Positions 1 to 13,603 of a DNA stretch of 13,663 bases are shown here, in pieces. The notes under the pieces are model-generated. The model saw only the letters and a program-made list of their open reading frames with translations. It was not told the origin of the DNA and made no database searches. The DNA is taken from assembly GCA_016839745.1 (NCBI GenBank), contig JAEOTS010000159.1, positions 1 to 13,663 on the forward strand. Reading direction: 5' to 3'. Numbering within the stretch: the first letter of the stretch is position 1; every line of letters starts with the position of its first letter. This stretch comes from Promethearchaeota archaeon (GTDB lineage Archaea > Asgardarchaeota > Lokiarchaeia > Sigyniarchaeales > SOKP01). The position numbers were made by a program, and so were the translations under genes.

Positions 1-1225
1 CTTTAAATTCTTTTATCTTTAAATTTCCTAATTTATTTGCAAGAGTATTTGCACATTCATGGGCACAAACTAAACCTTCTAGTAAAGAGTTACTCGCTAA
101 TCGATTTGCACCATGCAATCCTGTACAAGTAGATTCTCCAATTACATACAGGTTTTTCACTTTGGTAGATCCATCAATTTTCGTTAATACACCCCCACAA
201 CAATAATGCGCTGCTGGAACAACAGGAATAGGTTCTTGAGTAATATCTATGTTAAAATTTTGGCAGGCGTCATATACTCCTGGAAAGTGACTTCTAATAA
301 AATCTGAACTCCTATATGAAGCTATATCTAAATAAACATAATCATCTCCTGATTTTTTAAGTTCAGCATCAATTGCTCTAGATACAATATCCCGTGGAGC
401 TAATTCTTTAGCGGGATGATATTCTTGCATAAACTCATGTCCGCTTATGTCTTTAAGAACAGCTCCCTCACCTCTCATGGCTTCGGTAATTAATAGTGAT
501 TTTGCATATGGATGATATAAGCATGTTGGATGAAATTGATAAAACTCCATGTTTGCAATTATAGCTCCTGCCCGGTAAGCCATAGCAATCCCATCTCCTG
601 ACGCCACATCAGGATTTGTTGTATAAAGATAAATTTTCCCTGCTCCACCCGTCGCCAAAACTGTTACTTTAGCTGCTATATTATGTATCTCCTCATTTTC
701 TTGATCTAGAACATAAGCTCCATCACACCTAAAATTAGCTGAAAACAAATTAATTGCACACCAATATTCCTTTATTTGAATATTATGGTGTCTTTTTACT
801 TCTTCAATCAGTTGCTTTTCTACATTCTGGCCTGTTAAATCATTGACGTGTAAGATTCTTCTTTCAGAATGACCCCCTTCCTTTCCCAGATCGTATTCAC
901 CATTCTCACCCCGGTTAAACTCAACTCCTAGATCAATTAACTCTTTTATCCTTTCTGGCGCTTGAGTTATAATTTTTCTAACAACCACTTCATTGCATAA
1001 TCCATCTCCTGCAATTAAGGTATCTTTAATATGGTTTTCAAAACTATCGTTTCCATTCCACACACAAGCAATACCTCCTTGAGCATAAAATGTATTAGAT
1101 TCTTTGAGGCTCTCCTTAGTAATTAAAAATATTTCTTGATCTGGTATTAATTTCGCTAGCTTTATTGCCAATGATAATCCGGAGATTCCACCTCCAATTA
1201 TTAAAATATCAGTTTTAATCTTCAA
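1..1225 (-). CDS. nadB: L-aspartate oxidase (NAD biosynthesis), partial; 3' end lies beyond the left edge of the window
   Basis: Translated by hand from TTG at 1225, preceded by GGAG: MKIKTDILIIGGGISGL (FAD GxGxxG), SNTFYAQGGIA, EGGHSERRILH, and near the edge GLHGANRLASNSLLEGLV. These are NadB motifs. Not in the ORF track because no stop lies in the window. Confidence 0.95.
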   Translation of the reverse strand, partial: MKIKTDILIIGGGISGLSLAIKLAKLIPDQEIFLITKESLKESNTFYAQGGIACVWNGNDSFENHIKDTLIAGDGLCNEVVVRKIITQAPERIKELIDLGVEFNRGENGEYDLGKEGGHSERRILHVNDLTGQNVEKQLIEEVKRHHNIQIKEYWCAINLFSANFRCDGAYVLDQENEEIHNIAAKVTVLATGGAGKIYLYTTNPDVASGDGIAMAYRAGAIIANMEFYQFHPTCLYHPYAKSLLITEAMRGEGAVLKDISGHEFMQEYHPAKELAPRDIVSRAIDAELKKSGDDYVYLDIASYRSSDFIRSHFPGVYDACQNFNIDITQEPIPVVPAAHYCCGGVLTKIDGSTKVKNLYVIGESTCTGLHGANRLASNSLLEGLVCAHECANTLANKLGNLKIKEFK

Positions 1226-1309
1226 AGAGCTCCAAAATTTCCTAATTATTATTATAAATATATTTTTAATATCCTTAATATAATTGACAATTAATAGTTT
1301 TTTCCTAAA
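1069..1309. repeat. Direct repeat copy 1 (nadB first 52 codons plus upstream region); partner at 13361..13603
   Basis: Manual alignment: 1069..1225 vs 13361..13517 gives 143/157 identical, ungapped. 1267..1309 vs 13561..13603 gives 39/43. The ~41-43 nt between the two blocks are diverged. Confidence 0.95.
1267..1309 (-). promoter_or_regulatory. Putative nadB promoter/operator block
   Basis: Conserved (39/43) between the repeat copies while the adjacent non-coding DNA has diverged. The minus strand reads AAAAAACTATTAAT (BRE/TATA-like). Contains the palindrome TAATTG-A-CAATTA (1281..1293). Confidence 0.5.
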
Positions 1310-1317
1310 TGATAAAT

Positions 1318-1446
1318 TTTTAATTCATTAATATGCTCTTGAACCATTTCAGCATTTTGCACTTGTTATAATTGGTTAAACAAATTTAAACTTTCTTCAA
1401 AATTAATCATAGCATTATGATAATCTCCAGATAATTCTTTTTCCAT
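1318..1446 (-). pseudogene. Remnant of the C-terminus of a tetratricopeptide-repeat (TPR) protein
   Basis: Minus frame reads MEKELSGDYHNAMINFEESLNLFNQL*QVQNAEMVQEHINELK. This matches the TPR pattern G-x-Y-x-x-A-x-x-x-F/Y-x-x-A/S-L plus a capping helix, with an in-frame TAA at 1366..1368. Confidence 0.5.
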
Positions 1447-1623: not shown

Positions 1624-2661
1624 ATGAGCGGAAAAGTTGTTACTTTTGGAGAAATAATGCTTAGACTTTCCCCCCCTAATTTTAAACGATTTATCCAAAC
1701 TCGTTCTTTTGATGTAATATATGGTGGAGGTGAAGCTAATGTTGCAGTATCATTGGCTAATTATGGAATTCCTGTTAATTATATAACTAAATTGCCGAAT
1801 AATGAAATCGGTGATGCTTGTATTCAATTCCTTAGACAATTTGGTGTGAATACGAAGAATATAGTGAGAGGAGGGAATAGAATTGGAATTTATTATCTCG
1901 AAATGGGATCTTCTATTCGACCAAGCAAAGTCATTTATGATAGAGCTAATTCTGCCATTTCAGAAGCGAATTCTCAAGATTTTAATTGGCACGAGATATT
2001 TAAAGGAGTAACCTGGTTTCATTGGACGGGTATTACACCAGCAATTTCTCAAAATTTAGCAAATATCTGTCGTGAAGCTGTAAAGGTGGCAAAAGAAAAA
2101 GATATCACAATTTCATGTGATCTAAATTACCGGAGTAAACTTTGGAAATATGGAAAAGAACCTAAAGATATTATGCCCGAATTAGTAAAGTTTTGTGATG
2201 TAGCGATAGGAAATGAAGAGGATGCTGAGAAAGTTTTAGGTATCAAAGCTCCAGATACAGATGTGACGACGGGAAAGTTAGATGCCGCAAATTTTAGATT
2301 TGTAGTTGAAGAAATTGTAAAGCAATATCCTAATCTGAAAAAAGTAGCAATAACTCTAAGGGGGTCAATTTCTGCTAGCAATAATACTTGGTCAGCAGTT
2401 CTCTACGATGGAATTAAAATGTATATTGGTCCTCAATATGAAATAACACCGATCGTTGATAGAGTAGGTGGAGGTGATTCTTTCATGGGAGGCTTAATTT
2501 ATGGATTACTCACATACAAAGAAGATCTTCAAAATGCACTTAACTTTGCTGTTGCTGCTTCCTGTCTAAAACATACGATCTTAGGCGATTTTAATTTAGT
2601 TTCGGTGGATGAAGTTCTTAAGTTAATGGATGGAGATAACTCTGGACGTGTTTCAAGATAA
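1624..2661 (+). CDS. kdgK: 2-dehydro-3-deoxygluconokinase (PfkB family sugar kinase)
   Basis: KVVTFGEIMLRLSPP, YGGGEANVAVSLA, YDRANSA, DLNYRSKLW, GNEED, DRVGGGDSF (PfkB catalytic motif) and the C-terminal GRVSR typical of long-form KdgK. eda lies in the same cluster. Confidence 0.9.
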   Translation: MSGKVVTFGEIMLRLSPPNFKRFIQTRSFDVIYGGGEANVAVSLANYGIPVNYITKLPNNEIGDACIQFLRQFGVNTKNIVRGGNRIGIYYLEMGSSIRPSKVIYDRANSAISEANSQDFNWHEIFKGVTWFHWTGITPAISQNLANICREAVKVAKEKDITISCDLNYRSKLWKYGKEPKDIMPELVKFCDVAIGNEEDAEKVLGIKAPDTDVTTGKLDAANFRFVVEEIVKQYPNLKKVAITLRGSISASNNTWSAVLYDGIKMYIGPQYEITPIVDRVGGGDSFMGGLIYGLLTYKEDLQNALNFAVAASCLKHTILGDFNLVSVDEVLKLMDGDNSGRVSR

Positions 2662-2674
2662 TTAATCCAAGAGG

Positions 2675-3493
2675 ATGAATAGGATAATGAATAAAAATCA
2701 AAAGTTAATTATTACTGCTACTACAGCAAATTCATGGATATATCCTGAAGTTAAGAATTGGCCACAGACAATTGATCAATTAGTCGATGATGTAGTGGCG
2801 TGTTATAAGGCTGGTGCTGCGATTGTCCATGTTCATCTCCCAAGGGGAGAAGAAGTTGAAACTGTGAGGCGTATACGGGAAAATTGTGATGTTCTTATCC
2901 AAGCTGGTATGTCGAGTGAATCAATCCCTAAAAGAAAAGGTGATTTTGATGCCAAACCAGATATGATGTCTGTTATATTAAATCACCATGCTGAACATTT
3001 TACTCAAGTAACTGTAGATGTTTTACATCCTTTAGAGGAATTAGAAGAATATTGTGTAAAATGTAAAGCAGCTAATATCCGACCAGAATGGGAAGTTTGG
3101 CAACATGGTTCCTATTGGAATTTAAATTATTTAATAGAAAAAGGATTATTAGAATGGGCAAAACCTCATATCTTAACATTATTTTTTAATTGGCCTGGTG
3201 GAACATGGAGTCCTGCTAATTTCGAAGAATATATGCATAGAAAGAGATATATACCACCTAATTCTGTCCATACAGTAAGTGTAATGGGTGAGGATCAAAT
3301 GAAACTTTTAGTCTTTGTTCTTACGCATGGTGGAAACATAAGAATTGGTACTGAAGATTATCCTTTTATAAGAAAAGGAGTAACAGCAAAAAATAATGCC
3401 GAAATTGTTAAGAATTATGTGAGTATTAGTAAATATCTAGGTCGTGAAACAGCAGATCCATCTGAAGCTCGTAAAATATTAGGTCTGAAATGA
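2675..3493 (+). CDS. Beta-keto acid cleavage enzyme (BKACE / DUF849 / Kce family)
   Basis: KLIITATTA, CYKAGAAIVHVH (Zn HxH), IRPEWEVW, GGNIRIGTED (third Zn ligand Glu), GRETADPSEARKILGL. The start may instead be the ATG at 2687. Confidence 0.9.
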   Translation: MNRIMNKNQKLIITATTANSWIYPEVKNWPQTIDQLVDDVVACYKAGAAIVHVHLPRGEEVETVRRIRENCDVLIQAGMSSESIPKRKGDFDAKPDMMSVILNHHAEHFTQVTVDVLHPLEELEEYCVKCKAANIRPEWEVWQHGSYWNLNYLIEKGLLEWAKPHILTLFFNWPGGTWSPANFEEYMHRKRYIPPNSVHTVSVMGEDQMKLLVFVLTHGGNIRIGTEDYPFIRKGVTAKNNAEIVKNYVSISKYLGRETADPSEARKILGLK

Positions 3494-3536
3494 TTTCTTT
3501 ATTCTAACTTATAATAAACTTTAAAAAAATAGGAAT

Positions 3537-3647
3537 TTGAAATTAAAAGATGAATTAGCCATAATAAAAGGAGCAGGACTAGGGGAATCTACTACTCTAC
3601 TATTTATTAAAAATGGAAAAAGGCAAAAAAGCTTTATAAACACTTAA
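3537..3647 (+). pseudogene. Truncated N-terminal remnant of a short-chain dehydrogenase (SDR)
   Basis: TTG-started 36-codon frame MKLKDELAIIKGAG--LGESTTLLFIKNGK aligns with the SDR at 10568 (MKLKGKVAIITGAGAGIGEATALLFAKEGAK). The glycine motif is damaged by a 2-codon deletion and similarity ends near 3620. Confidence 0.7.
3625..3640 (+). promoter_or_regulatory. Archaeal BRE/TATA-like promoter upstream of the DMT gene
   Basis: AAAAAAGC-TTTATAAA about 65 nt upstream of 3706. Confidence 0.45.
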
Positions 3648-3705
3648 CGCAAAGGTATTATTATCTTATCTTCATCTTATTTTAAACAAAAACTAAAAGA
3701 AGTGT

Positions 3706-4605
3706 TTGGAAAAAATGAATGGTTCATTTTATTTATTAGGTGTTTTCTTAGCTATCTTATCTGGAAGTATAAATAATATAGGTTTAGTGTTACAAAAAAA
3801 GGTAGTTAATGAAGTATCCCCTGAAGCAAAATTCTTTAGAAGTTTAGTGAAAAAGCCCCTTTGGATCACAGGGTTATTAATGGAGCTAGCAATAGGTTCA
3901 GTTTTTTTCATGATTGCTCAAATTTATATTGGTCCTGCCTTAATTCCAGGCTTGATGGCATTCGGTTTAATTTTTCTCGCTATAGGATCTGTTAAAATTG
4001 TGGGTGAAACTTTAAAAAAGGAAGAAATGATCGGAATTATTTTAATGATTATAGCGATCTTTTTATTAGGTCTTTCTGAACTAAGTATAGATATTGCTGG
4101 CATAAACATTTTAGCTATTGATCTTGTTCTAAACATGACAATCTTTACGATTGTTTTATTTTTAGGTTCCTTGGTATGTGAGATTTTACAGAGAAAAGTT
4201 GAAAAATTAAAAGGAATATTATTAGCAATATCCTCAGGATTCCAATTTTCCTTAACTAATTTTTGGATCGCACCTCTAATGGCGGTAATTGCTCATGTTT
4301 TTGGAGGAAATGCTACTTTAAGCGAATTTTTCTTATTTCTAGCTTGTGCAGTTATTTTAATTGTAGCAAGTATCCTAGGGATAATGAAAATTTCACAATC
4401 ATTTCGAGTAGCCAACGCTAGTCGAATGATTCCTATTCAACAAGTACCTATACAAGTTACACCAATAATAGCATACTTTTTTGTTTTTACGCTAACGCCT
4501 CCTACAATCTTTCCTATCATTTATGTGATTTTTGGGGTTTCTTTAATCCTATTAAGCTCGTTTCTGCTAGCAAAAAGGCAAGCACAATTAGAAGCTATAA
4601 AGTAA
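3706..4605 (+). CDS. DMT-superfamily (NIPA-like) multi-pass membrane transporter
   Basis: About 9 hydrophobic segments. N-terminal GVFLAILSGSINNIGLVLQKK and KKPLWITGLLM...GPALIPGL resemble NIPA/DMT proteins. Start is TTG 3706 or ATG 3715. Substrate unknown. Confidence 0.7.
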   Translation: MEKMNGSFYLLGVFLAILSGSINNIGLVLQKKVVNEVSPEAKFFRSLVKKPLWITGLLMELAIGSVFFMIAQIYIGPALIPGLMAFGLIFLAIGSVKIVGETLKKEEMIGIILMIIAIFLLGLSELSIDIAGINILAIDLVLNMTIFTIVLFLGSLVCEILQRKVEKLKGILLAISSGFQFSLTNFWIAPLMAVIAHVFGGNATLSEFFLFLACAVILIVASILGIMKISQSFRVANASRMIPIQQVPIQVTPIIAYFFVFTLTPPTIFPIIYVIFGVSLILLSSFLLAKRQAQLEAIK

Positions 4606-4615
4606 GGTCATAAAA

Positions 4616-5410
4616 GTGGCAAAAATAATATTCTTCCAACCACATCCGGACGACTTAGAAATAAACTGTGGGCATCTTATCCATTACCTTGCAATAAAAA
4701 GTAAAAATAACCATATTATTAAGATCGCTTCAATCACTAAAGGTGAATATGGCCTTCCTAGTGCTCAATATGATAAATTTAAAGGTGATTTGCTTGCAAA
4801 AGTCAGAACACGAGAATTGTACAATGCTCAAAGCATTCACGGAATACCTCCAGAAAATATACACTTTTTTGGATATGTTGATGGTTTAATAGAATTTACC
4901 AGAGATTTTGTAGAAGAGATTGCTGAATATTTGAAGAAGGAAAAACCTGATGTAATTTTCGCACCAGAAGCAATTTATACGTCTTATTACCACATGGATC
5001 ATGTAAATACAGGTAGGGCAATATATTACTGTATTCACAACAAATTAATCAACTTTGCTCCAACACTTTATTTTTACTCAACTTTAAGCCCAAATTTTTT
5101 CTTCGGTTTTAAGAAAGAAGGTTTTAATTTAATCGATCAACTACTAGCTTGCCATAAAACACAATTTTGGCTTATTAATTACGTAAAATGGACTTATAAA
5201 CCAAAAACACGATTAGCAGGAAGAAAATTAAGAGGTTGGAAATATGCCGAGAAATATCGAAGAGTTTATTTTCATAAAAATAATGAAAATAAGAATAAAC
5301 CATCATTGATCGTTAAAATGTTAAGCCATTGGTATTCGAGCATGCCTTGGTTTAAAGCTAAATACCCACAAGATGTGTTAGAACAGCTTAAAAAAAAAGG
5401 AAAAATCTAA
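4616..5410 (+). CDS. PIG-L/LmbE-family metal-dependent de-N-acetylase
   Basis: FFQPHPDDLE (PHxDD), TKGEYG, RTREL, KPDVIFAP, HMDH (HxDH), CHKTQF, YAEKY. GTG start 10 nt after the DMT stop. Confidence 0.9.
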   Translation: MAKIIFFQPHPDDLEINCGHLIHYLAIKSKNNHIIKIASITKGEYGLPSAQYDKFKGDLLAKVRTRELYNAQSIHGIPPENIHFFGYVDGLIEFTRDFVEEIAEYLKKEKPDVIFAPEAIYTSYYHMDHVNTGRAIYYCIHNKLINFAPTLYFYSTLSPNFFFGFKKEGFNLIDQLLACHKTQFWLINYVKWTYKPKTRLAGRKLRGWKYAEKYRRVYFHKNNENKNKPSLIVKMLSHWYSSMPWFKAKYPQDVLEQLKKKGKI

Positions 5411-5560
5411 TTATTTAGGAAAAATATTAATAATGTTTTTAGTGAAATTAAGTATAATAAAACTATATATAGAACAAAAGCAAAATAACCTCAATATATA
5501 ACAAAGAATTAAATTATTAATTTGATAATTTAACAACTAAAAGAAAAGAGGTGTATTTTA

Positions 5561-5902
5561 TTGGCGACTCCTGAAGAAATTAAAGAAGCCTTAAATAAAT
5601 GGGTAAAAGTTTTAGACGATCCTGAGATTGCGGATGAATTTGAAGGATTTAATAAAACCATGCAATTTGAATTTTCAGACTTAAATTATAAAATAAAAAT
5701 GATTTTTGAAAATAAAACAGCAAGATTAGAGGAAGGTTTTGATGAAAATGCTGAAATGGGTTTAGAAATTAATTCTGCTCTTTTTGTAGGAATTGCTACC
5801 GGTGAAGTTGATCCAATGGAAGCGTTTATGGAAGGAGAACTTAAAACTAAGGGCGATATGAACTCATTACAGAAATTAGAAGTCTTCATGGATATTGAAT
5901 AG
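5561..5902 (+). CDS. Stand-alone SCP2 sterol/lipid-binding domain protein
   Basis: LFVGIATGEVDPMEAFMEGELKTKGDMNSLQKL is the typical SCP2 C-terminal motif. TTG start with a GAGGTG RBS 7 nt upstream. Confidence 0.9.
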   Translation: MATPEEIKEALNKWVKVLDDPEIADEFEGFNKTMQFEFSDLNYKIKMIFENKTARLEEGFDENAEMGLEINSALFVGIATGEVDPMEAFMEGELKTKGDMNSLQKLEVFMDIE

Positions 5903-5918
5903 CGAAGTTTATTAAGGA

Positions 5919-5946
5919 TTTTTTTCAAATACTGTTTTTTTTGTTT
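5919..5946 (+). terminator. Possible archaeal oligo-T terminator after SCP2
   Basis: Two runs of 7-8 T within ~45 nt of the stop codon. Confidence 0.3.
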
Positions 5947-6071
5947 GGGAAAATAAGAAGATTTGAAAGAGATAATATGAATTAATTTAAAAATCAAAAA
6001 TTTAGGAATATTGAAAATAAGTATTTTTATAAGAAAAAATATAAAAAAAATTTATTCTGGTATGATGAGAA

Positions 6072-7196
6072 ATGGAACCAATTGGTTTTAATAAAGAAAG
6101 AACACGCAATGTTTTAGAAAAGCACGATATAGATGTGCTAATTGCATCTACTCCCGTAAATGTTTTTTACTTAACTGGTTTACCAACATTACATGTAGCT
6201 CCAAATCCTATTTTATATGTTTTATATAATCAATACCCTAGTTTGTCTTTAGTACGGAGAGACGGTGAGGAAAGTCTGATAACGTGGATTACTTTTCGTA
6301 GCGTAGATAAATTTTCATGGGTAAGTGATATTCATGGAATAGTATCTCCTAAAGGTGCTATGGTATCAGTATCTGATAAGATTGAAGAATGGGGTTTATC
6401 AAATAGAAAGATAGGATATGAGTCTCTTATGCCTTCTTATCAATCTGAATATCTAAGGATTAGATTTCCAAGTGCTACATTTATCAATGGCGATCAAGCT
6501 TTTTTAGATATGCGTTTAATTAAATCTGAAGAGGAGGTAAAACGAATAAAAAAATCAACAGAAATTTCTGAAAAAGCTATAATGAAGATGATTGAAGCAT
6601 CTTATGAAGGAATTACTGATTTAGAATTATTACAAATCGCTCGGAGAACAATCGTTAATGAAGGTGCAGAAGGATGGGATCATTTAACAATGAATTTGGG
6701 ACCATCCGATCCTGAAGCACCAGGAGTAGGAACTATTCTGAAAGCAGGAGATCTTAATAGATTTGACATTGGAACTATTTGGAAAGGATATGTCTCAGAT
6801 ATTAGTCGAGAGTTAGTGATAGGACAGATACCTGAAGGAGCTGAGGAAGTTATGAATAGATTGATAAAAGTTCAAGAATTCTGTGAAGAGAATATTCACC
6901 CTGATTTAAATATGAAAGAATTGTATAATAATGCTATTAAATTTCATAAATCTTTAACAAAGAAGGGGAGAGCCTTTGTAACGGGTCATAGCATCGGGCT
7001 AGAATGTGAGGAAACTCATTTATTTAGCCCAATGAAAAAGTTAGATAGGCCTTTTGAAGAGAACATGGTTCTTGATATTGAGGTCTGGCAGAATTTTAAA
7101 AATCAAGGATTAGTAGGCATTGAAGATTGTTATAGAATAACTAATAATGGGTGTGAGAGGCTCTCAAGTTTAGATAAGAATATTTTTGTTAAATGA
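6072..7196 (+). CDS. M24 (Xaa-Pro peptidase/creatinase-fold) metallohydrolase, divergent
   Basis: Creatinase-like N domain (NVFYLTG) and MRLIKSEEE linker. Metal ligands: FDIG (D), SDISR (D), GHSIG (H), DIEV (E), GIED (E). Confidence 0.85.
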   Translation: MEPIGFNKERTRNVLEKHDIDVLIASTPVNVFYLTGLPTLHVAPNPILYVLYNQYPSLSLVRRDGEESLITWITFRSVDKFSWVSDIHGIVSPKGAMVSVSDKIEEWGLSNRKIGYESLMPSYQSEYLRIRFPSATFINGDQAFLDMRLIKSEEEVKRIKKSTEISEKAIMKMIEASYEGITDLELLQIARRTIVNEGAEGWDHLTMNLGPSDPEAPGVGTILKAGDLNRFDIGTIWKGYVSDISRELVIGQIPEGAEEVMNRLIKVQEFCEENIHPDLNMKELYNNAIKFHKSLTKKGRAFVTGHSIGLECEETHLFSPMKKLDRPFEENMVLDIEVWQNFKNQGLVGIEDCYRITNNGCERLSSLDKNIFVK

Positions 7197-7255
7197 AAAG
7201 AAAACCTTAAAGCCATAACCTATATTAATTAATAAAATTATTGGAGTATAATTAA

Positions 7256-8392
7256 ATGAGTGATTTTGTAAAGTTTGGAATAATAGGAGCGGGTTCTGCT
7301 GTTTGGCGCTATCATAAGTTAGGCACCAAAAATAATCCACAAGTCAAATTTATTTCGGGATACGACATTAACGAGAAGAAATTAGCTAAAGCTGCTAAAT
7401 ATTCAAAGTTAGAACCTTTTTCGAAGTTAGATGATTTTTTAAAAAGTGATATTGATGCTGTTATGGTTTTAGTACCACACTATCTACACAGTGATATAGT
7501 TATTGCTGTAGCTGAGGCTGGAAAACATGTTATCTGTGAAAAACCTATGGCGACCACGCTTGAGGAATGTGATGAGATGATCGCAGCAACAAAAAAAGCT
7601 GGTATAAAATTTATGATTGCGGAGAATCATCGATTCCTACCGGCTCATCAATTTATAAAAGATGCCTTAGAGCGTGGATTCATAGGAGATGTATTTCTTG
7701 GGCGAACTTACGAAGGTGCCTATGCTAGTTCACAATTTTTTGACATTAATGATTGGAGTTTCACTTATTCTAAAGGAGGTGGTGGTGTAGTTTCAGATCA
7801 AGGAGTTCACAAATTTACTATGCTGAATTGGTTTCTTGGTGAGGTAGATTCAGCTCAATGTTGGTTAAGTAAAACTTTGAAATCTCCCCCCAATAAAGGA
7901 GAAGATACTGCCATAATTCTATTGCGCTATAAATGTGGAGCTACTGTGACTGTTGATATTTCCTCTAGTACAGTGCATCCGCTTACGAATAAAACAGAAT
8001 TGCATGGAACTAAGGGTACTATTTTTGAAGATCATGATTGGGAAAGACCAGTTAAACTATTTTCGTCACATCCTGAGGCTGAGGTTAAGGGAGAGTTTTA
8101 TAGTCCGAAAATTGAACATGGACCATTTCCTGACTATTATAAAATTTCTATGGGTCATGAAGATGCATATTTTGCTGAATGTATTTTAGAAGATAAGAAA
8201 CCAGAATTTACACCAGAAGAGGCAAGGCAAGGTGTTGCAGTGGTTCTCTTAGCATATCTATCTGCCAAAAACGGAAGAATGACTTCGATGGATGAATTAA
8301 TGGAAATTTATAAAAAAGAAGGTACAAGAAGCATATTAGAAGGACTTGGAGAAGTAACACAAAAAAATTATGAAAATCTAAATTGGGATTAA
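7256..8392 (+). CDS. Gfo/Idh/MocA-family NAD(P)-dependent oxidoreductase
   Basis: FGIIGAG, VPHYLH, AGKHVICEKPMA, GGGVVSDQGVH; GGAG RBS upstream. Confidence 0.92.
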   Translation: MSDFVKFGIIGAGSAVWRYHKLGTKNNPQVKFISGYDINEKKLAKAAKYSKLEPFSKLDDFLKSDIDAVMVLVPHYLHSDIVIAVAEAGKHVICEKPMATTLEECDEMIAATKKAGIKFMIAENHRFLPAHQFIKDALERGFIGDVFLGRTYEGAYASSQFFDINDWSFTYSKGGGGVVSDQGVHKFTMLNWFLGEVDSAQCWLSKTLKSPPNKGEDTAIILLRYKCGATVTVDISSSTVHPLTNKTELHGTKGTIFEDHDWERPVKLFSSHPEAEVKGEFYSPKIEHGPFPDYYKISMGHEDAYFAECILEDKKPEFTPEEARQGVAVVLLAYLSAKNGRMTSMDELMEIYKKEGTRSILEGLGEVTQKNYENLNWD

Positions 8393-8489
8393 AAAATAAT
8401 AATAGAATCTTTTTTTCTTTTTAATAATATAATTCTATTCCTATAATTGACTAAGTAGTTAAAGAATATGTTAATTGTTTAAAATAAAT

Positions 8490-10421
8490 TTAAATTTGTG
8501 TAATTTTTACTGTATGGATTCCATCTTCTTTAATAGTTATAGATACTAATTGATTTTCTTTATCTTTTTCTATTTCACCCTCAGAAATACTTATATCATA
8601 ACCGTTTGGATATTGAATTCTTGGAACAAAAAGAATTGTTGAAGCTTTTATAGAAGTATCGCCATCAAACTTAAAATAAAAGCATCCCTCCTTTATATCA
8701 AATTCCATTTTTAATGGGATCCCTGTACATCGAATGAAATGTGGGCGGCAGAAGCCCTTAATTGCTCTTCCACCACTATTTATATCATCTGGATCAACTT
8801 GTTGATCTTTACTAAAAATTGATAAATCTTCCAAATTCCACAAATCTCCCCATTCGTTAATATTATCTGCAGTATAATTCCATTGTAATGCATGTAATAA
8901 ATTAGCATCTAATGCATTATAATAATTGTTTAGTGCTTTTGTATGTGTTTTCCAAGCTTCATCTGGTTCAGTTTTTAACTTCTCATAAGCTTCTTTTTTA
9001 TTTAAATCATAAGGCAGTCCAAATTCTCCGATTATTGTTGGAATTCCTCCAAAAAAAGAAGTAGAGTAATCTTTAATATTTAATAATTGTGAGATAAACA
9101 TTTGTTGTACATTTTTTTTACCAATAACTGGATTTCCTGTAATAAGATTATAATTAGCTTTAAGCATTGCTCTTTTCGTACCAGTCGTAGCTACATCGTA
9201 CCAGTGGGCAGCATGTGCGCTATTAGGCGGTATTTCTAATTCAAATAACTCTCCTTTCATCACCCTTTCCATAGGTCCTGTAAAAAATATTATTGCTTTT
9301 GAAAATTCACTTCGGATAGCTTCAGTATAGCTTTTTAGGAAAGGAGACAAATAATCTCTATAAAAATCAATTTTTTCTCCATTTTTATAAATGAAATAGT
9401 CGTTTTTCAAAATTTTTGGATTTCCGTCCTTATCTAATCCCCATACACCTTCTTTTTTCCAGATATCTTCAAATCCTTCTAACCAACATGATATTTTCAT
9501 CTGATTTAGCTCTTCTTTTCTAGTTTCTTTAATACCAAATCTCTTAACTTCTTGATATCCAATAGTTCTATTATATCCTGCTCCAGTAAGCATAGCATCT
9601 ATTGGTGTAAAGACATAGCCTATTACTTCAGATTTTCCTTCCCATTCACTTCCATCTACAAATCTGCCAATCCAACCTTCGGGTGGTTCATTTAATATAT
9701 CAAATCCTAATATATATGGATTATCTTTTATCCTTATGGCTATTTGCTTTATTGTATCAATAAAATGGTTTTGTAAGTAATCCTGAGCGTTAATTCCATC
9801 AACCATACATGAAGGAGCAAATTGTTTTCCCCCAAAGAATAAAGTCCACATCATTCCATTCGCAAATCTATAAGTATTCCCCATCCAATGCATTGGAAGA
9901 TATTTTGTAAGGTCATCAGGGTCATATCTGTGTTGCATTACAAATGCTGCCTCTGAGCTTTCAAATTTAGTATAATCTAAACCAACTTTTTCAAATGTCC
10001 AACCAGGGGCTCCATCTCCTCCTGTCATCCTACTCCAAACATCTTGATGAGGATCTATAAATATGTAAAAGCTATATTCTCCAGCAATCTTTAAAATTTC
10101 TTCTAAATAATCAAGATATTCTTTATCATATTTTTTTGGTCCACTATGTTCAATTGCTTCCCATGTAACTAAAAATCTTAGACAATTAAAGCCCCAGTGT
10201 TTTAATCGTGAAAAATGTTTATCTGCATCTTTTAAAGGGAATGGACGACCAACAAAAGAAACATTTTTGTGATCACTAAAATCAGTTTTTATGTGTGTTG
10301 CCCCATTGGGAGAATAAGGGATTTTTGAGCTTCCTCCCAAATTTACACCTCTAAGTAGTACTGTTCGACCTTTTTCATCAACAAACCGCTCATTATAAAT
10401 TCTCAATGTCATTTGAATCAA
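8490..10421 (-). CDS. Glycoside hydrolase family 5, endoglycoceramidase-related (EGCrP / steryl-beta-glucosidase-like), with C-terminal beta-sandwich
   Basis: LRGVNLGGSSKIP, FVGRPFPL, WGFNCLRFLVTWEAIEH, IDPHQDVWSRMTGGDGAPGW, acid/base NEP, nucleophile IIGEFG, WNLEDLSIFS, GGRA. No signal peptide evident. Confidence 0.9.
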   Translation of the reverse strand: MIQMTLRIYNERFVDEKGRTVLLRGVNLGGSSKIPYSPNGATHIKTDFSDHKNVSFVGRPFPLKDADKHFSRLKHWGFNCLRFLVTWEAIEHSGPKKYDKEYLDYLEEILKIAGEYSFYIFIDPHQDVWSRMTGGDGAPGWTFEKVGLDYTKFESSEAAFVMQHRYDPDDLTKYLPMHWMGNTYRFANGMMWTLFFGGKQFAPSCMVDGINAQDYLQNHFIDTIKQIAIRIKDNPYILGFDILNEPPEGWIGRFVDGSEWEGKSEVIGYVFTPIDAMLTGAGYNRTIGYQEVKRFGIKETRKEELNQMKISCWLEGFEDIWKKEGVWGLDKDGNPKILKNDYFIYKNGEKIDFYRDYLSPFLKSYTEAIRSEFSKAIIFFTGPMERVMKGELFELEIPPNSAHAAHWYDVATTGTKRAMLKANYNLITGNPVIGKKNVQQMFISQLLNIKDYSTSFFGGIPTIIGEFGLPYDLNKKEAYEKLKTEPDEAWKTHTKALNNYYNALDANLLHALQWNYTADNINEWGDLWNLEDLSIFSKDQQVDPDDINSGGRAIKGFCRPHFIRCTGIPLKMEFDIKEGCFYFKFDGDTSIKASTILFVPRIQYPNGYDISISEGEIEKDKENQLVSITIKEDGIHTVKITQI

Positions 10422-10468
10422 ATTAGTATTAATTCTATTTAAGAGTTCTTATCAGTAAATTACTCTCT

Positions 10469-10489
10469 TTTCATTAAAGTTTTATGAAA
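10469..10489. promoter_or_regulatory. Near-perfect 21-bp palindrome between the divergent GH5 and SDR genes
   Basis: TTTCATTAAA-G-TTTTATGAAA, 9/10 arm positions complementary. Confidence 0.35.
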
Positions 10490-10567
10490 TAAAAATCAAA
10501 TTATATTTAACTTTTATAATTTTTATCCACATCTATTCTAAATTTAATCTAACAATGATAAAAAAAA

Positions 10568-11317
10568 ATGAAACTAAAAGGGAAGGTTGCTATAATAACG
10601 GGAGCTGGAGCAGGTATTGGTGAAGCAACTGCTCTTCTTTTTGCGAAAGAAGGTGCAAAAATTTGTTGTAATTCATTAACCGAGTCAGCTAAGAATGTCG
10701 TAGGAAAAATTAAATCCTCCGGAGAAGATGCAATATTTGTTCAAGCAGATATTTCTGTGGAAGAGGAAGCGAATCGTATAATTGAAAAAACCATAGAATT
10801 TTATGGCAAAATTGATATTTTGTTTAATAATGCAGGAATTGTACTTGGTGGAGCAATCGATACAATGTCTACAGAAGACTGGGATAGAACTATGGCTGTC
10901 AATGTACGTGGTATATACTTGGTAACGAAATACGCGATTCCCTATTTACGAAAAACGCGAGGTGTAATTATAAATAATTCTTCTTCAGTTGCATTTAAAG
11001 GTGTAAAAGATAGAGCTGCATACACAGCGTCAAAAGGAGCAGTTCTATCAATGACTAGAGCTATGGCTGCAGATTATCTTGAAGATAAAATCAGAGTAAA
11101 TGCAATATGTCCTGGAACTACAGATACACTATCATTGACAGAAAGGATTAAAAGTAGGGGAGGAAATTTTGAAAAAGTAAGGCAACAGTATATCAGTCGC
11201 CAGAGATTAGGAAGGCTTGGAACACCTGAAGAAATAGCAGAAGGAGTACTATTTCTTACTGTGAATGAATTCTGTACCGGTGTAAGCCTCTTAGTTGATG
11301 GAGGTATGACAATGTAA
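10568..11317 (+). CDS. Short-chain dehydrogenase/reductase, resembling the BDH2 / 2-keto-3-deoxy-L-fuconate dehydrogenase group
   Basis: TGAGAGIG, NNAG, YTASK. C-terminal NAICPGTTDTLSLTERI...RQQYISRQRLGRLGTPEEIA resembles BDH2/KDF dehydrogenases; the subfamily call is less certain than the SDR call. Confidence 0.9.
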   Translation: MKLKGKVAIITGAGAGIGEATALLFAKEGAKICCNSLTESAKNVVGKIKSSGEDAIFVQADISVEEEANRIIEKTIEFYGKIDILFNNAGIVLGGAIDTMSTEDWDRTMAVNVRGIYLVTKYAIPYLRKTRGVIINNSSSVAFKGVKDRAAYTASKGAVLSMTRAMAADYLEDKIRVNAICPGTTDTLSLTERIKSRGGNFEKVRQQYISRQRLGRLGTPEEIAEGVLFLTVNEFCTGVSLLVDGGMTM

Positions 11318-11360
11318 TAATTAAATAAGTAAAATTATTTTGAAATCTGGAGTGATAAAT

Positions 11361-11658
11361 ATGGTTAAACATATAGGGATTGTTGCTTGCAGTGCAGAAG
11401 CTTAGGAAAAGTTGTTTAAATACAGGCACCCATAGATAATGATAGAATAATATTTGAAGAGTTAATAGTATCTTTTCAGAAGAATCTCGGTGAGTTTATA
11501 ACAAAGTTATACAAAAGTTAGAAAAGAATGGTTGTAATGCTATTGTTCTTGGTTGTACGGAAATTCCTTTACTCATAGATCCGAATGATTGTTCATTACC
11601 TATTTTAGATTTTGCTAGATTACTTGCAAGTGCAGCAATTAAAAAGGCTATCGAATAA
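11361..11658 (+). pseudogene. Aspartate/glutamate racemase family pseudogene (large internal deletion, stops, frameshift)
   Basis: GGAGTGA RBS then MVKHIGIVACSAEA* (TAG 11403). Later DRIIFEEL, a frameshift, then VNSIFSEESR*VYNKVIQKLEKNGCNAIVLGCTEIPLLIDPNDCSLPILDFARLLASAAIKKAIE*. LGCTEIP is the racemase second catalytic Cys motif. Confidence 0.85.
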
Positions 11659-11675
11659 AAAATAAAAAAAGATTA

Positions 11676-12452
11676 TTATTGAGTTGTCCAGCCACCATCA
11701 ATTCTTAGATCTGCACCCGTTATGTAGGAAGATTCATCCGTCGCTAAATAGAGTATTCCCGTAGCTATTTCTTCTGGTGTTGCCCAACGTCCCATTACAC
11801 CTTCTTGTTCAAATTCTTTTTTAACTTCTTCATATGTTACCCCTCTATCTCTCGCTTGTTTCGCAACATCACCTTGTAGCATTGGTGTGTCTGTAGCACC
11901 AGGACTTACACTATTCACCCGAACATTATAAGGTGCCAAATCTAACGCTAAGGCTCTTGTATAACCTAGCACACCTGCTTTTGTGGAACAATAATTAGCA
12001 TGGGCAACTTGACCAATATGAGCAGCTACAGAAGCTAATGTAATTATAGACCCTGATTTTTGCTTTTTAAAATATGGTACAGCATATTTACATGTATAAT
12101 GAGTTCCTTTTAGATTAACGTTAATCAATAAATCATAATCTTCATCTGGAAAAGTTTCTATTGGTCCAACTCGTACCACTCCCGCATTTACAATTAAAAC
12201 ATCAATTCTTCCATATTTTTCAATAGTTGAATCGATCATATTCTTAACTTCGTCTGGATTCCTTACATCTACTTTCATGATAGTGGTTTTATCTTTTCTA
12301 TCTTCAATCAATTCAAGAGTTTCTTTTAAGCCTTCTTCACTTATATCTGAGAGGATTTGAATTGCACCTTCTTTCGCAAATAAGATTGCGGTAGATCTTC
12401 CAATTCCGGAAGCAGCTCCAGTTAATACAACAATTTTATCTTTAACTCTCAA
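11676..12452 (-). CDS. Short-chain dehydrogenase/reductase (probably NAD-preferring)
   Basis: TGAASGIG, Asp after beta-2 (LSDIS), VNAG, YCSTK, VNSVSPGATDT, DGG. TTG start with GGGAG RBS. Confidence 0.92.
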   Translation of the reverse strand: MRVKDKIVVLTGAASGIGRSTAILFAKEGAIQILSDISEEGLKETLELIEDRKDKTTIMKVDVRNPDEVKNMIDSTIEKYGRIDVLIVNAGVVRVGPIETFPDEDYDLLINVNLKGTHYTCKYAVPYFKKQKSGSIITLASVAAHIGQVAHANYCSTKAGVLGYTRALALDLAPYNVRVNSVSPGATDTPMLQGDVAKQARDRGVTYEEVKKEFEQEGVMGRWATPEEIATGILYLATDESSYITGADLRIDGGWTTQ

Positions 12453-12547
12453 TCTAGCTCCCTTTTTTATAAAATGTTAAAATTTTATATATTTCTTATC
12501 TAATAAATGATCCGATATAAACAGATTTCATAATAAAAATTTAATTC

Positions 12548-12643
12548 TTAAATATAATCATAATATTCCTCAGTGATTTCTGGATCATCCAACTTTTTTG
12601 CCCATTTTCCTAATGCTTGTTTTAATTCTTTTGCAGTTATCAT
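12548..12643 (-). pseudogene. Truncated paralog of the SCP2 gene (31 aa)
   Basis: GAGGTG RBS plus MITAKELKQALGKWAKKLDDPEITEEYYDYI*; 16/31 identical to the N-terminus of the SCP2 at 5561 (MATPEEIKEALNKWVKVLDDPEIADEFEGFN). Confidence 0.8.
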
Positions 12644-12717
12644 CTATTTTCACCTCAAAAGAATTAAATTTACGAATGTCTAAAGCCCTGTGAAGATAAT
12701 TTTTGGCGATGGTATCC

Positions 12718-13353
12718 TTATCCAATTTCTGAATGAATTAATGAGATTGCCGTTTTGGTTAATTTTTTAATCTCCTCAAATTGTCCAGTAGAAATCAAAT
12801 CTTTTTTTACTATCCAACTTCCTCCACACGCAAGAACATTACTTAGTTTCAAATAATCAATTAAAGAATCAATATTTATTCCACCAGTTGGTACAAATCT
12901 CATTTCTGGATATGGTCCTGCCAAACTTTTAAGCATCATAGTTCCTCCAGAAAGATTAGCTGGGAAAAATTTAACGATTTTTAAACCTTTATCAAGCGCC
13001 CATTCCACTATTGTAGGTGTATTAACGCCGGGAATAATAGGAATTTTGTTAATTATACAATAATCAACAATTTTCGGATTAAATCCTGGTGTAACAATAA
13101 ATTTTGCTCCTGTCTTTATAGCATCCTTCACTTGATCAACTTTTAGAACTGTACCCGCTCCTACTAATATATCTGGTAATTCAATAGTTAATCTCTTAAT
13201 AGATTCTGTCGTAGCTTCAGTTCTAAATGTTACTTCAATGATAGGAAGTCCTGCTTCAATTAGTGCTTTCCCTAAAGGAACTGCATCATCCACGCTATTT
13301 ATAACTGCAACAGGTATAAGTTTTAATTCTTTTATTCTTTTATAAACATCCAT
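12718..13353 (-). CDS. eda: KDPG/KHG aldolase (bacterial-type class I)
   Basis: IEVTFRT (catalytic Glu/Arg), VGAGTVL, GAKFIVTPG, VKFFPA (Schiff-base Lys), FVPTGGI, ACGGSW. Confidence 0.95.
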   Translation of the reverse strand: MDVYKRIKELKLIPVAVINSVDDAVPLGKALIEAGLPIIEVTFRTEATTESIKRLTIELPDILVGAGTVLKVDQVKDAIKTGAKFIVTPGFNPKIVDYCIINKIPIIPGVNTPTIVEWALDKGLKIVKFFPANLSGGTMMLKSLAGPYPEMRFVPTGGINIDSLIDYLKLSNVLACGGSWIVKKDLISTGQFEEIKKLTKTAISLIHSEIG

Positions 13354-13517
13354 TTTTTGACAATACCTCCTTGAGCATGAAATGTATTAGATTCTTTGAG
13401 GCTCTCCTTAGTAATTAAAACTATTTCTTGATCTGGTATTATTTTTGCTAGTTTTATTGCCAATGATAATCCGGAGATACCTCCTCCGACTAGTAAAATA
13501 TTTGTCTTAATTTTCAA
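13332..13517 (-). pseudogene. nadB: Truncated duplicate of the nadB 5' end (52 NadB codons plus a 9-residue unrelated tail overlapping the eda start)
   Basis: 46/52 aa identical to the nadB starting at 1225. Homology stops abruptly after AQGGI at 13361. Confidence 0.9.
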
Positions 13518-13603
13518 AGAACTCCTATGGTCTCCAATTTTTTCATATTAATATTTAAATTAATATCCTAAATATAAATGACAATTAATAATTTTTTCTT
13601 AAA
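13361..13603. repeat. Direct repeat copy 2 (nadB 5' end plus upstream region)
   Basis: Same orientation as 1069..1309, offset 12,292-12,294 bp. Confidence 0.95.

Follow-up and report, generated by a model that had tools for sequence, protein, structure and literature searches.

In this study, we examined a stretch of 13,663 nt from a Promethearchaeota archaeon (contig JAEOTS010000159.1, hereafter the window) and the cluster of genes that it carries around a glycoside hydrolase of family GH5. The cluster is a real functional unit and is probably catabolic, and from the sequences we put at about an even chance the more specific reading that this DNA carries one copy of a cytoplasmic supercluster, specific to Asgard archaea, for the catabolism of a decorated mono-β-glucoside whose aglycone is at least partly hydrophobic. 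A previous sequence-only reading of this DNA had proposed a cytoplasmic route in which a lipid-linked or N-acylated glycoside is imported, freed of its aglycone and acyl group, oxidized and cleaved; the functional unit and its probable catabolic role hold, but the proposed substrate, the membership of the aldolase Eda and a direct link from sugar oxidation to 2-keto-3-deoxygluconate (KDG) are not supported or are weaker. The window is an entire contig of about 32% GC within a 3.5-Mb metagenome-assembled genome (G000; completeness 89%, contamination 5.8%). Genes were called from the open reading frame (ORF) listing together with Pfam and NCBIfam profile scans, and all eleven genes that had been listed earlier were found intact: the GH5 enzyme, a polytopic membrane protein (a label that is only probable as regards the transporter type), a PIG-L deacetylase, an SCP2 protein, an M24 metallohydrolase, a Gfo/Idh/MocA dehydrogenase (Gfo), two short-chain dehydrogenases (SDR1 and SDR2), a β-keto acid cleavage enzyme (BKACE), a KDG kinase-like protein (KdgK) and Eda (Table 1). 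We found no description of this cluster in the literature on Asgard, sterylglucosidase, SCP2 and BKACE topics, and for Prometheoarchaeum one SCP2 homologue has been noted and nothing more (PMC12139934).

The GH5 gene was searched in 251 genomes of the phylum, from which 40 loci were taken, with a further 79 from a scan of one genome per species, and all loci were searched with the window proteins, which resulted in 106 non-redundant GH5 loci. GH5 is present in 63 of the 251 Asgard genomes (30 of 54 in family f1, 15 of 19 in f13 and 8 of 59 in f8), and the homologues of the window enzyme are almost exclusively from Asgard archaea, namely the Promethearchaeota/Loki, Thor, Hod, Hermod and Heimdall groups. 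At least one core partner gene accompanies GH5 in 28 of the 35 loci with a GH5 identity of at least 64% (Loki-type), in 6 of 12 at 57-63% and in 3 of 13 at 50-56%. None was found in the 46 loci below 50%, which come from Heimdall, Chloroflexota, Leptospira, Binatia and proteobacteria, and these bacterial and Heimdall loci have no recurrent neighbours that would hint at a substrate. Within the 35 Loki-type loci, many of them on short contigs, Gfo was found in 27, PIG-L in 21, the membrane protein, SCP2 and M24 in 20 each, SDR1 in 15, SDR2, BKACE and KdgK in 14 each, and Eda in one. The same set also occurs in Thorarchaeota (L019, L062, L068, L076 and L078), in Hodarchaeum (L070), in isolate BC3 (L067) and in a Lac Pavin archaeon (L073), the groups from which the partner-bearing loci at 50-63% GH5 identity come.

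Gene order and orientation vary by lineage. In Loki, GH5 and Gfo point towards each other; Thor loci have PIG-L, Gfo and GH5 in that order on one strand, with Gfo-GH5 gaps of 28-43 nt; and in Hod an M24-SCP2-permease group is divergent from GH5-PIG-L. The recurrence that the earlier reading had asked about is therefore seen, with the order shuffled, across at least four archaeal lineages and in many of their genomes, and recurrence in spite of such shuffling argues that the genes probably serve one pathway and are not a one-off accretion. In addition, GH5 and each of its partner genes show correlated pairwise divergence (Mantel r 0.57-0.79, a figure inflated by relatedness), and dN/dS values between the window and its closest counterpart, locus L004, are 0.08-0.26 for all eleven genes, indicating purifying selection.

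On alignment and on a predicted structure, the GH5 enzyme is a member of the fungal Sgl1/SglA sterylglucosidase family, which bears out its earlier description as EGCrP-like and specifies it as Sgl1/EGCrP2-type. Its best solved relatives are Aspergillus SglA (8EXD) and Cryptococcus Sgl1 (7LPO), with endoglycoceramidases far behind. Using the Sgl1 catalytic, glucose-binding, cap and pocket residues named in a previous study (PMC8497620), we found that the catalytic glutamates E245 and E466, in NEP and GE(F/I)G motifs, align to Sgl1 E270 and E520, that K33, H125, N244, W514 and E531 align to the glucose-binding K47, H142, N269, W570 and E587, and that W528 aligns to W584, the cap that limits the site to a single sugar. 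Across 15 Asgard sequences of 44-78% identity, none of these eight residues varies. The AlphaFold model (pLDDT 85, pTM 0.89) is a capped TIM barrel with a C-terminal β-sandwich, unlike the open endoglycoceramidases; in Foldseek it gave TM scores of 0.89-0.90 to 7LPP/7LPO and 0.87 to 8EXD, and 0.53 to the open endoglycoceramidases (EGCase) I/II. The true start is probably the ATG at codon 4 of the annotated frame. Against the fungal enzymes, a homologue from Leptospira scores only a little lower (296 versus 348 bits), so that this GH5 family is widespread in prokaryotes.

In the pathway that we infer from family membership and gene linkage, the glucoside would be taken up by the NIPA/EamA-like permease of the drug/metabolite transporter (DMT) type, and a single terminal β-glucose would be removed by the Sgl1-type GH5, with the greasy substrate or product being held by SCP2. 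The PIG-L (CE14) deacetylase and the M24 metallohydrolase would remove N-acetyl and aminoacyl/amide decorations, the released sugar would be oxidized by the Gfo/Idh/MocA enzyme, and the KDG-type kinase, together with the 2-keto-3-deoxy-6-phosphogluconate (KDPG) aldolase where present, would take a 2-keto-3-deoxy acid to pyruvate and glyceraldehyde-3-phosphate. The dehydratase for this last step would be encoded outside the cluster; candidate MR/MLE and IlvD/Edd dehydratases are found elsewhere in the genome. In a second branch, SDR1 may convert a β-hydroxy acid to a β-keto acid, BKACE would turn this acid and acetyl-CoA into a shortened acyl-CoA and acetoacetate, and SDR2 would interconvert acetoacetate and 3-hydroxybutyrate.

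The second branch departs from the earlier reading, in which the SDRs and BKACE had been taken for sugar-acid enzymes. Both SDRs are nearest to (3R)-hydroxyacyl-CoA, DHRS6 and 3-hydroxybutyrate dehydrogenases, with the MFE-2 dehydrogenase (2et6) as best solved match. BKACE scores 156 bits against a cut-off of 24.8 for PF05853, matches the lysine-fermentation enzyme Kce (PDB 2y7d) at 3.6e-24 and keeps its Zn-binding HxH and E-D motifs; it lies well under the Kce equivalog cut-off (131 versus 382), which suggests that its substrate differs from that of Kce. Judged by these relatives, the SDRs and BKACE instead look like a branch leading from β-hydroxy acids to β-keto-acid cleavage. Fermentation of lysine or β-lysine by a Kce-type route was considered and rejected, with no aminomutase or diaminohexanoate dehydrogenase present and the score so far under the equivalog cut-off.

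The kinase (PfkB, 108.7 bits) reaches 227 of the 440 bits set for the KDG-kinase equivalog and scores 541 bits with the kinase half of an aldolase/kinase fusion model. Its relatives at 46-58% identity are fused to KDPG aldolase (PF01081), UxuA, KduI, UxaC or GH88, and these fusions support a role as KDG kinase. Eda itself passes the family thresholds (Table 1; also PRK05718, 263 bits versus 241). The Gfo protein matches sugar C1 and C3 dehydrogenases and inositol dehydrogenases alike, without resolution among them. This leaves room for catabolism of a cyclitol or inositol glycoside, in which Gfo would be an inositol dehydrogenase, the BKACE-fold enzyme a ring-opening β-diketone hydrolase and PIG-L would act on a N-acetylglucosamine (GlcNAc)-inositol unit, while the SDRs, kinase and aldolase would carry the product to pyruvate and triose phosphate. 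IolG is indeed the top NCBIfam match of Gfo (1e-42), Thermotoga TM0414 (3ezy) is among its best solved relatives, the kinase also matches IolC (5e-30), and members of the PIG-L family act on GlcNAc-inositol compounds. However, all of these scores are far under the family cut-offs, IolE, IolD, IolB and a phosphodiesterase were not found, and an α-linked glucosamine (GlcN)-inositol needs no β-glucosidase. The Thermotoga ring-opening enzyme, moreover, may belong to a family other than BKACE, and we gave the idea low weight, regarding it as decidedly improbable.

The decorating groups could also belong to another kind of substrate. PIG-L is well above its Pfam threshold (PF02585, 72.2 bits versus 28.2), misses the BshB equivalog cut-offs and holds the metal-binding HPDD motif in its N-terminal FQPHPDDLE; its nearest solved structures, though remote, are archaeal diacetylchitobiose deacetylases (3.5e-12). 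M24 has the pita-bread domain and keeps all five metal ligands (D, D, H, E, E) in its alignment with the Pyrococcus prolidase 1wy2, and the protein is under the PepQ equivalog cut-off (84 versus 630). With these enzymes, the cluster might serve the catabolism of amino sugars, chito-oligosaccharides or glycopeptides. PIG-L/CE14 would then deacetylate a terminal GlcNAc as the Thermococcales enzyme Dac does, GH5 would be an exo-β-glycosidase on the deacetylated sugar, Gfo would oxidize GlcN to glucosaminate, deamination would give KDG or KDPG for the kinase and aldolase to split, and M24, the racemase and peptidases would handle the peptide part. Apart from the relatives of PIG-L, this is consistent with a CE4 deacetylase in place of PIG-L in the Lac Pavin locus, with a GH20 hexosaminidase beside a second GH5 gene in one genus and with the sulfatase (N-sulfoglucosamine-sulfohydrolase-like), radical-SAM/SPASM, Asp/Glu racemase or prolyl oligopeptidase genes that, differing by locus, lie between the SDR genes; a route from CE14 through a sugar dehydrogenase and glucosaminate to KDPG has been proposed for natronoarchaea and is its nearest published analogue (PMC12343721). 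Yet GH5 has the same -1 subsite as Sgl1, a glucose-specific enzyme, the loci yielded no glucosaminate ammonia-lyase, GlcN kinase or deaminase, each accessory gene is limited to one genus or locus, and SCP2 and the SDR/BKACE branch would be left unexplained. We therefore hold this to be a serious but rather unlikely alternative. Ectoine catabolism, for which M24, a deacetylase, a racemase-family protein and an aldehyde dehydrogenase might speak, was rejected as leaving GH5, Gfo and the kinase unexplained.

Several observations weigh against a decorated β-glucoside as the substrate or against parts of the route drawn for it. The related genomes are non-independent samples of recurrence. PIG-L, M24 and the racemase, and in some genomes GH20, sulfatase and prolyl oligopeptidase, fit an amino sugar or glycopeptide as well as a glycolipid, which makes glycolipid, amino-sugar conjugate and glycopeptide all candidate substrate classes. 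The aglycone-pocket residues of Sgl1 are replaced in the HMMER alignment (L290 by V, L431 by E and L458 by T, with A470 in a deleted loop), of which only L458 affected Sgl1 activity (PMC8497620); as all of the tested pocket residues differ, a sterol substrate is not supported, and the steryl glucoside or glucosylceramide suggested earlier was not borne out. Permease is a weak assignment for the membrane protein: it has about 9-10 hydrophobic segments in the hydropathy scan and the ESM-Atlas clusters closest to it contain NIPA (32% of members) or EamA, but its best Pfam match, EamA, is not significant (E 0.026) and its model (pLDDT 59, low confidence) gave no significant fold match. A polytopic membrane protein with such neighbours thus stands, and from these it is probably a NIPA/EamA-like DMT permease. 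The Eda type of the window occurs in only one other locus, so that Eda, previously listed as a pathway member, is not a conserved member of the cluster. Lastly, the cluster has no aldonate/uronate dehydratase, lactonase or CoA-transferase, and with no dehydratase in it the direct step from sugar oxidation to KDG that had been envisaged was not confirmed.

Instead of nutrient catabolism, the cluster could serve to turn over or remodel glycosylated isoprenoid lipids in the membrane of the cell itself, or to salvage glycosidic archaeal lipids from the sediment, with GH5 and SCP2 in the role that Sgl1/EGCrP2 has for endogenous steryl glucosides in fungi. All enzymes are predicted to be cytoplasmic, a simple hydropathy scan having found no signal-peptide-like or membrane segment in the soluble proteins; GH5 is very highly conserved (65-84% identity across Asgard classes), SCP2 is a core member and in fungi the homologues have endogenous glycolipids as substrates (PMC8497620). 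The cluster is nevertheless missing from many complete genomes within a single family (GH5 in 30 of 54), its one or two copies moved as an island, as suits an accessory trait, and linked with it are genes for a permease, a kinase, an aldolase and BKACE. We give such a role a fairly small chance. Smaller still, though not negligible, is the chance we give to a eukaryotic-type endogenous glucolipid cycle in Asgard archaea, in which an Sgl1-type glucosidase and SCP2 would act on glucosylated isoprenoid lipids and the module, or GH5, would be evolutionarily continuous with the fungal/eukaryotic steryl-glucoside system; if this were true, the BKACE/SDR branch might be a CoA-sparing means of shortening the released lipid acid.

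Variation among the loci bears on the decorated-glucoside pathway through L073, the Lac Pavin archaeon labelled Methanobacteriota. Its cluster is divergent and, where the DMT permease and PIG-L are missing, has an MFS_2 glycoside-type transporter and the CE4 deacetylase, together with an FMN reductase and a putative cyclase; the non-orthologous displacement by this transporter and deacetylase supports the view that the uptake of a glycoside and the deacetylation of a sugar are integral to the pathway. The GPH-type transporter of this locus and the uronate fusions of the kinase prompted us to consider a glucuronide route, which was rejected: GH5 has the subsite of glucose-specific enzymes, and UxaC, UxuA and UxuB are not linked to the cluster. 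The gap between the SDR genes holds different cargo in different loci, for example a sulfatase with an N-sulfoglucosamine sulfohydrolase C-domain (L009:11856-13382), a radical-SAM/SPASM gene that is possibly a sulfatase maturase (L042:12071-13516) or a racemase, and one Thorarchaeota cluster contains a prolyl oligopeptidase split into a β-propeller ORF and a catalytic ORF (L019:16936-18984). Lineage-restricted neighbours of GH5, seen in single genera, are GH20 and a Pab87-like serine hydrolase. Other neighbours were seen as well: an ORF of 456 aa that has a LAGLIDADG domain and is inserted next to the permease gene in one genome (L017:14337-15707); an HpnA/3β-HSD-like extended SDR near a second Gfo/M24 pair in L008 and L009 (e.g. 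L009:18221-19219 and L009:1934-3064), with aldehyde dehydrogenase, TM1586-type nitroreductase-like and URO-D-like genes in the same area; and, in several Loki genomes, genes for a Ras-family small GTPase and for a HEAT-repeat protein at a distance of a few kb (L030:3780-4274 and neighbours).

The cluster had been described as a repeat-bounded unit, and a direct repeat of about 240 nt does surround it (1069-1318 versus 13361-13603, 86-87% identical, spacing 12292 nt). The repeat is a duplication of the 5' end of nadB with its upstream region; nadB is the flank of the island and lies outside the pathway. In the relatives G000:C15 and G177:C21, nadB lies next to a divergently oriented gene for a low-molecular-weight tyrosine phosphatase, with about 230-260 nt between the two, and a second assembly (G216:C19, locus L004; 94-99% nucleotide identity to the window per gene) has the same insertion and the same nadB remnant and continues into the phosphatase gene. 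The shared insertion and the adjacency in the relatives together indicate that a 12.3-kb unit moved as a block into the nadB/tyrosine-phosphatase intergenic region, with about 240 nt of the target being duplicated, perhaps by a single crossover with a circular intermediate bearing a diverged nadB 5' segment. Integrase-borne genomic islands share such flanking direct repeats; in contrast to them, the unit has no integrase gene, Pfam scans having found no integrase- or recombinase-like gene either within the window or over the 1.1 kb by which L004 extends past it. Neither Rfam nor tRNA scans gave a match in the window. Loci L044, L045 and L046 were also examined at the insertion site. G000 and G216 belong to different genera, each has a further nadB of its own elsewhere (80% and 73% identical) and G000 has a second cluster on contig C4 (the contigs concerned are G000:C15, G000:C4 and G216:C59); it may thus be that the window contig was mis-binned and comes from a related population, or that the island was transferred recently.

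The spacers of the island hold four gene remnants, of an SDR N-terminus after BKACE, of a racemase between the SDR genes, of an SCP2 N-terminus after SDR2 (the second SCP2 remnant that had been noticed earlier and was recovered here) and of nadB. In other loci, SDR1 directly follows BKACE at the place of the SDR remnant, and an intact racemase (Pfam PF01177/TIGR00035) occupies the place of the racemase remnant. Many loci have two paralogous cassettes (permease, PIG-L, with or without SCP2, M24 and Gfo) and two GH5 genes (L006 and L048), and the window corresponds to the KdgK-to-SDR2 stretch of this two-cassette supercluster. The SDR, racemase and SCP2 remnants thus indicate that the island is a trimmed mosaic of the larger supercluster. 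Such remnants, the cargo that differs between the SDR genes and the different content of the nadB-phosphatase spacer in G071, where a gene for a 1058-aa tandem-repeat protein shows the site to be variable, might be expected if unrelated genes had accreted at a recombination hot spot and shared no pathway. This we consider very improbable, as the same ten families, though rearranged, are found together in four lineages or more and never accompany GH5 in the bacterial loci, their divergence is correlated and all genes are under purifying selection.

Table 1. Features of the 13,663-nt window; functions are as predicted from the matches given.
Feature	Position	Strand	Evidence or remark
nadB (L-aspartate oxidase), N-terminal 408 aa	2..1225	-	NCBIfam nadB TIGR00551, 491 bits, above cut-off; truncated by contig end
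Left direct-repeat copy: about 52 first nadB codons and about 90 nt upstream	1069..1318		Repeat comparison
PfkB-family KDG kinase-like gene (KdgK)	1624..2661	+	Pfam PfkB 4.5e-31; NCBIfam KDG kinases under equivalog cut-offs
BKACE	2675..3493	+	Pfam PF05853 1.6e-45; 13 nt downstream of kinase
SDR N-terminus remnant, 31 aa, 55% identity to SDR1	3537..3626	+	tblastn E 2e-4
Polytopic membrane protein, 299 aa, probably NIPA/EamA-like DMT permease	3706..4605	+	Hydropathy, ESM-Atlas neighbours
PIG-L/CE14 de-N-acetylase	4616..5410	+	Pfam PF02585 7e-20
Stand-alone SCP2 lipid-binding domain protein	5561..5902	+	Pfam PF02036 7e-14
M24B metallohydrolase (Creatinase_N and Peptidase_M24), prolidase-like	6072..7196	+	Pfam; Pyrococcus prolidase 1wy2 1e-24
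Gfo/Idh/MocA NAD(P)-dependent sugar dehydrogenase	7256..8392	+	Pfam, NCBIfam
GH5 with GH5_C, 643 aa, exo-β-glucosidase of fungal Sgl1/SglA (EGCrP2) type	8490..10421	-	PDB 8exd 6.7e-103, 7lpo 2.6e-95
SDR1, classical short-chain dehydrogenase	10568..11317	+	Pfam, NCBIfam; convergent with SDR2
Asp/Glu-racemase pseudogene with internal deletion; aa 1-43 and 168-223 of intact gene left	11352..11628	+	tblastn E 1e-23 and 9e-7
SDR2, nearest 3-hydroxybutyrate and (3R)-hydroxyacyl dehydrogenases	11676..12452	-	Pfam, NCBIfam, solved-structure matches
Second SCP2 gene remnant, aa 1-38, 42% identity	12530..12643	-	tblastn E 3e-7
Eda (KDPG/2-keto-4-hydroxyglutarate aldolase)	12718..13353	-	Pfam 8.6e-68; TIGR01182 256 bits versus cut-off 156
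Right direct-repeat copy: nadB 5' remnant (56 codons, 84% aa identity) and upstream region	13350..13603	-	Abuts eda start codon

Asgard archaea are difficult to cultivate, and little is known of the carbon sources that they use; a conserved, cytoplasmic ten-gene cluster with a transporter points to decorated glucosides as a class of substrates for enrichments. The cluster also supplies prokaryotic relatives of the fungal sterylglucosidase that lack a signal peptide, a BKACE subfamily tightly coupled to a KDG-type kinase and an archaeal case in which a metabolic cluster appears to have moved as a block with target duplication. If the substrate were a membrane glycolipid, the findings would bear on the recycling of lipids in sediments and on lipid handling before eukaryotes.

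Comparison with known systems places the parts of the cluster more clearly than the whole. The fungal enzymes Sgl1/EGCrP2 (Cryptococcus, 7LPO) and SglA (Aspergillus, 8EXD) have the same catalytic glutamates, glucose-binding residues and tryptophan cap as the Asgard GH5 and share its whole fold including the cap and the C-terminal β-sandwich (TM 0.87-0.90), and neither side has a signal peptide; the Asgard enzyme, however, is about 150 aa shorter, differs in its pocket residues and has its gene within a cluster of many. Bacteria (Chloroflexota, Leptospira and Binatia) also commonly have homologues, at 44-48% identity, so that the family is not limited to Asgard archaea and eukaryotes. The chitin-oligomer route of Thermococcales (Dac and GlmA) and the CE14 route of natronoarchaea (PMC12343721) likewise pair a cytoplasmic archaeal CE14 deacetylase with an exo-glycosidase and also have a sugar dehydrogenase and a KDG/KDPG-type kinase and aldolase, but the window glycosidase is a GH5 enzyme with a glucose-type subsite and not of family GH35, and SCP2, M24 and BKACE are additional. 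Of the components of these routes, the GH35 enzyme GlmA, chitinase, GlcN kinase, GlcN-6-phosphate deaminase and ammonia-lyase are absent among the window genes, and the relative of Dac is a remote one.

The end steps of the semi-phosphorylative Entner-Doudoroff and hexuronate pathways (KdgK with Eda/KdgA) are matched in the window by the KDG-kinase-like PfkB protein and a bona fide Eda, whereas gluconate, mannonate and altronate dehydratases, an isomerase and KduI are missing from the cluster and Eda is present in few loci. Peroxisomal MFE-2 and SCPx offer a parallel in that both SDRs best match the MFE-2 dehydrogenase and SCP2 is encoded nearby; in the cluster, in contrast, the proteins are separate and there is no hydratase or thiolase, and BKACE would be thiolase-like on a free acid. 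In the oxidative deoxyribonate pathway of Pseudomonas simiae (PMC6365646), an SDR gene lies directly beside a BKACE gene as it does in the cluster, and the proposed chemistry, from β-hydroxy acid to β-keto acid to acyl-CoA and acetoacetate, is alike. The cluster differs from it in having no lactonase or glycerate kinase and in linking the pair to a KDG-type kinase and a glycosidase cluster. By this analogy, the putative branch formed by SDR and BKACE has a precedent in deoxyribonate catabolism.

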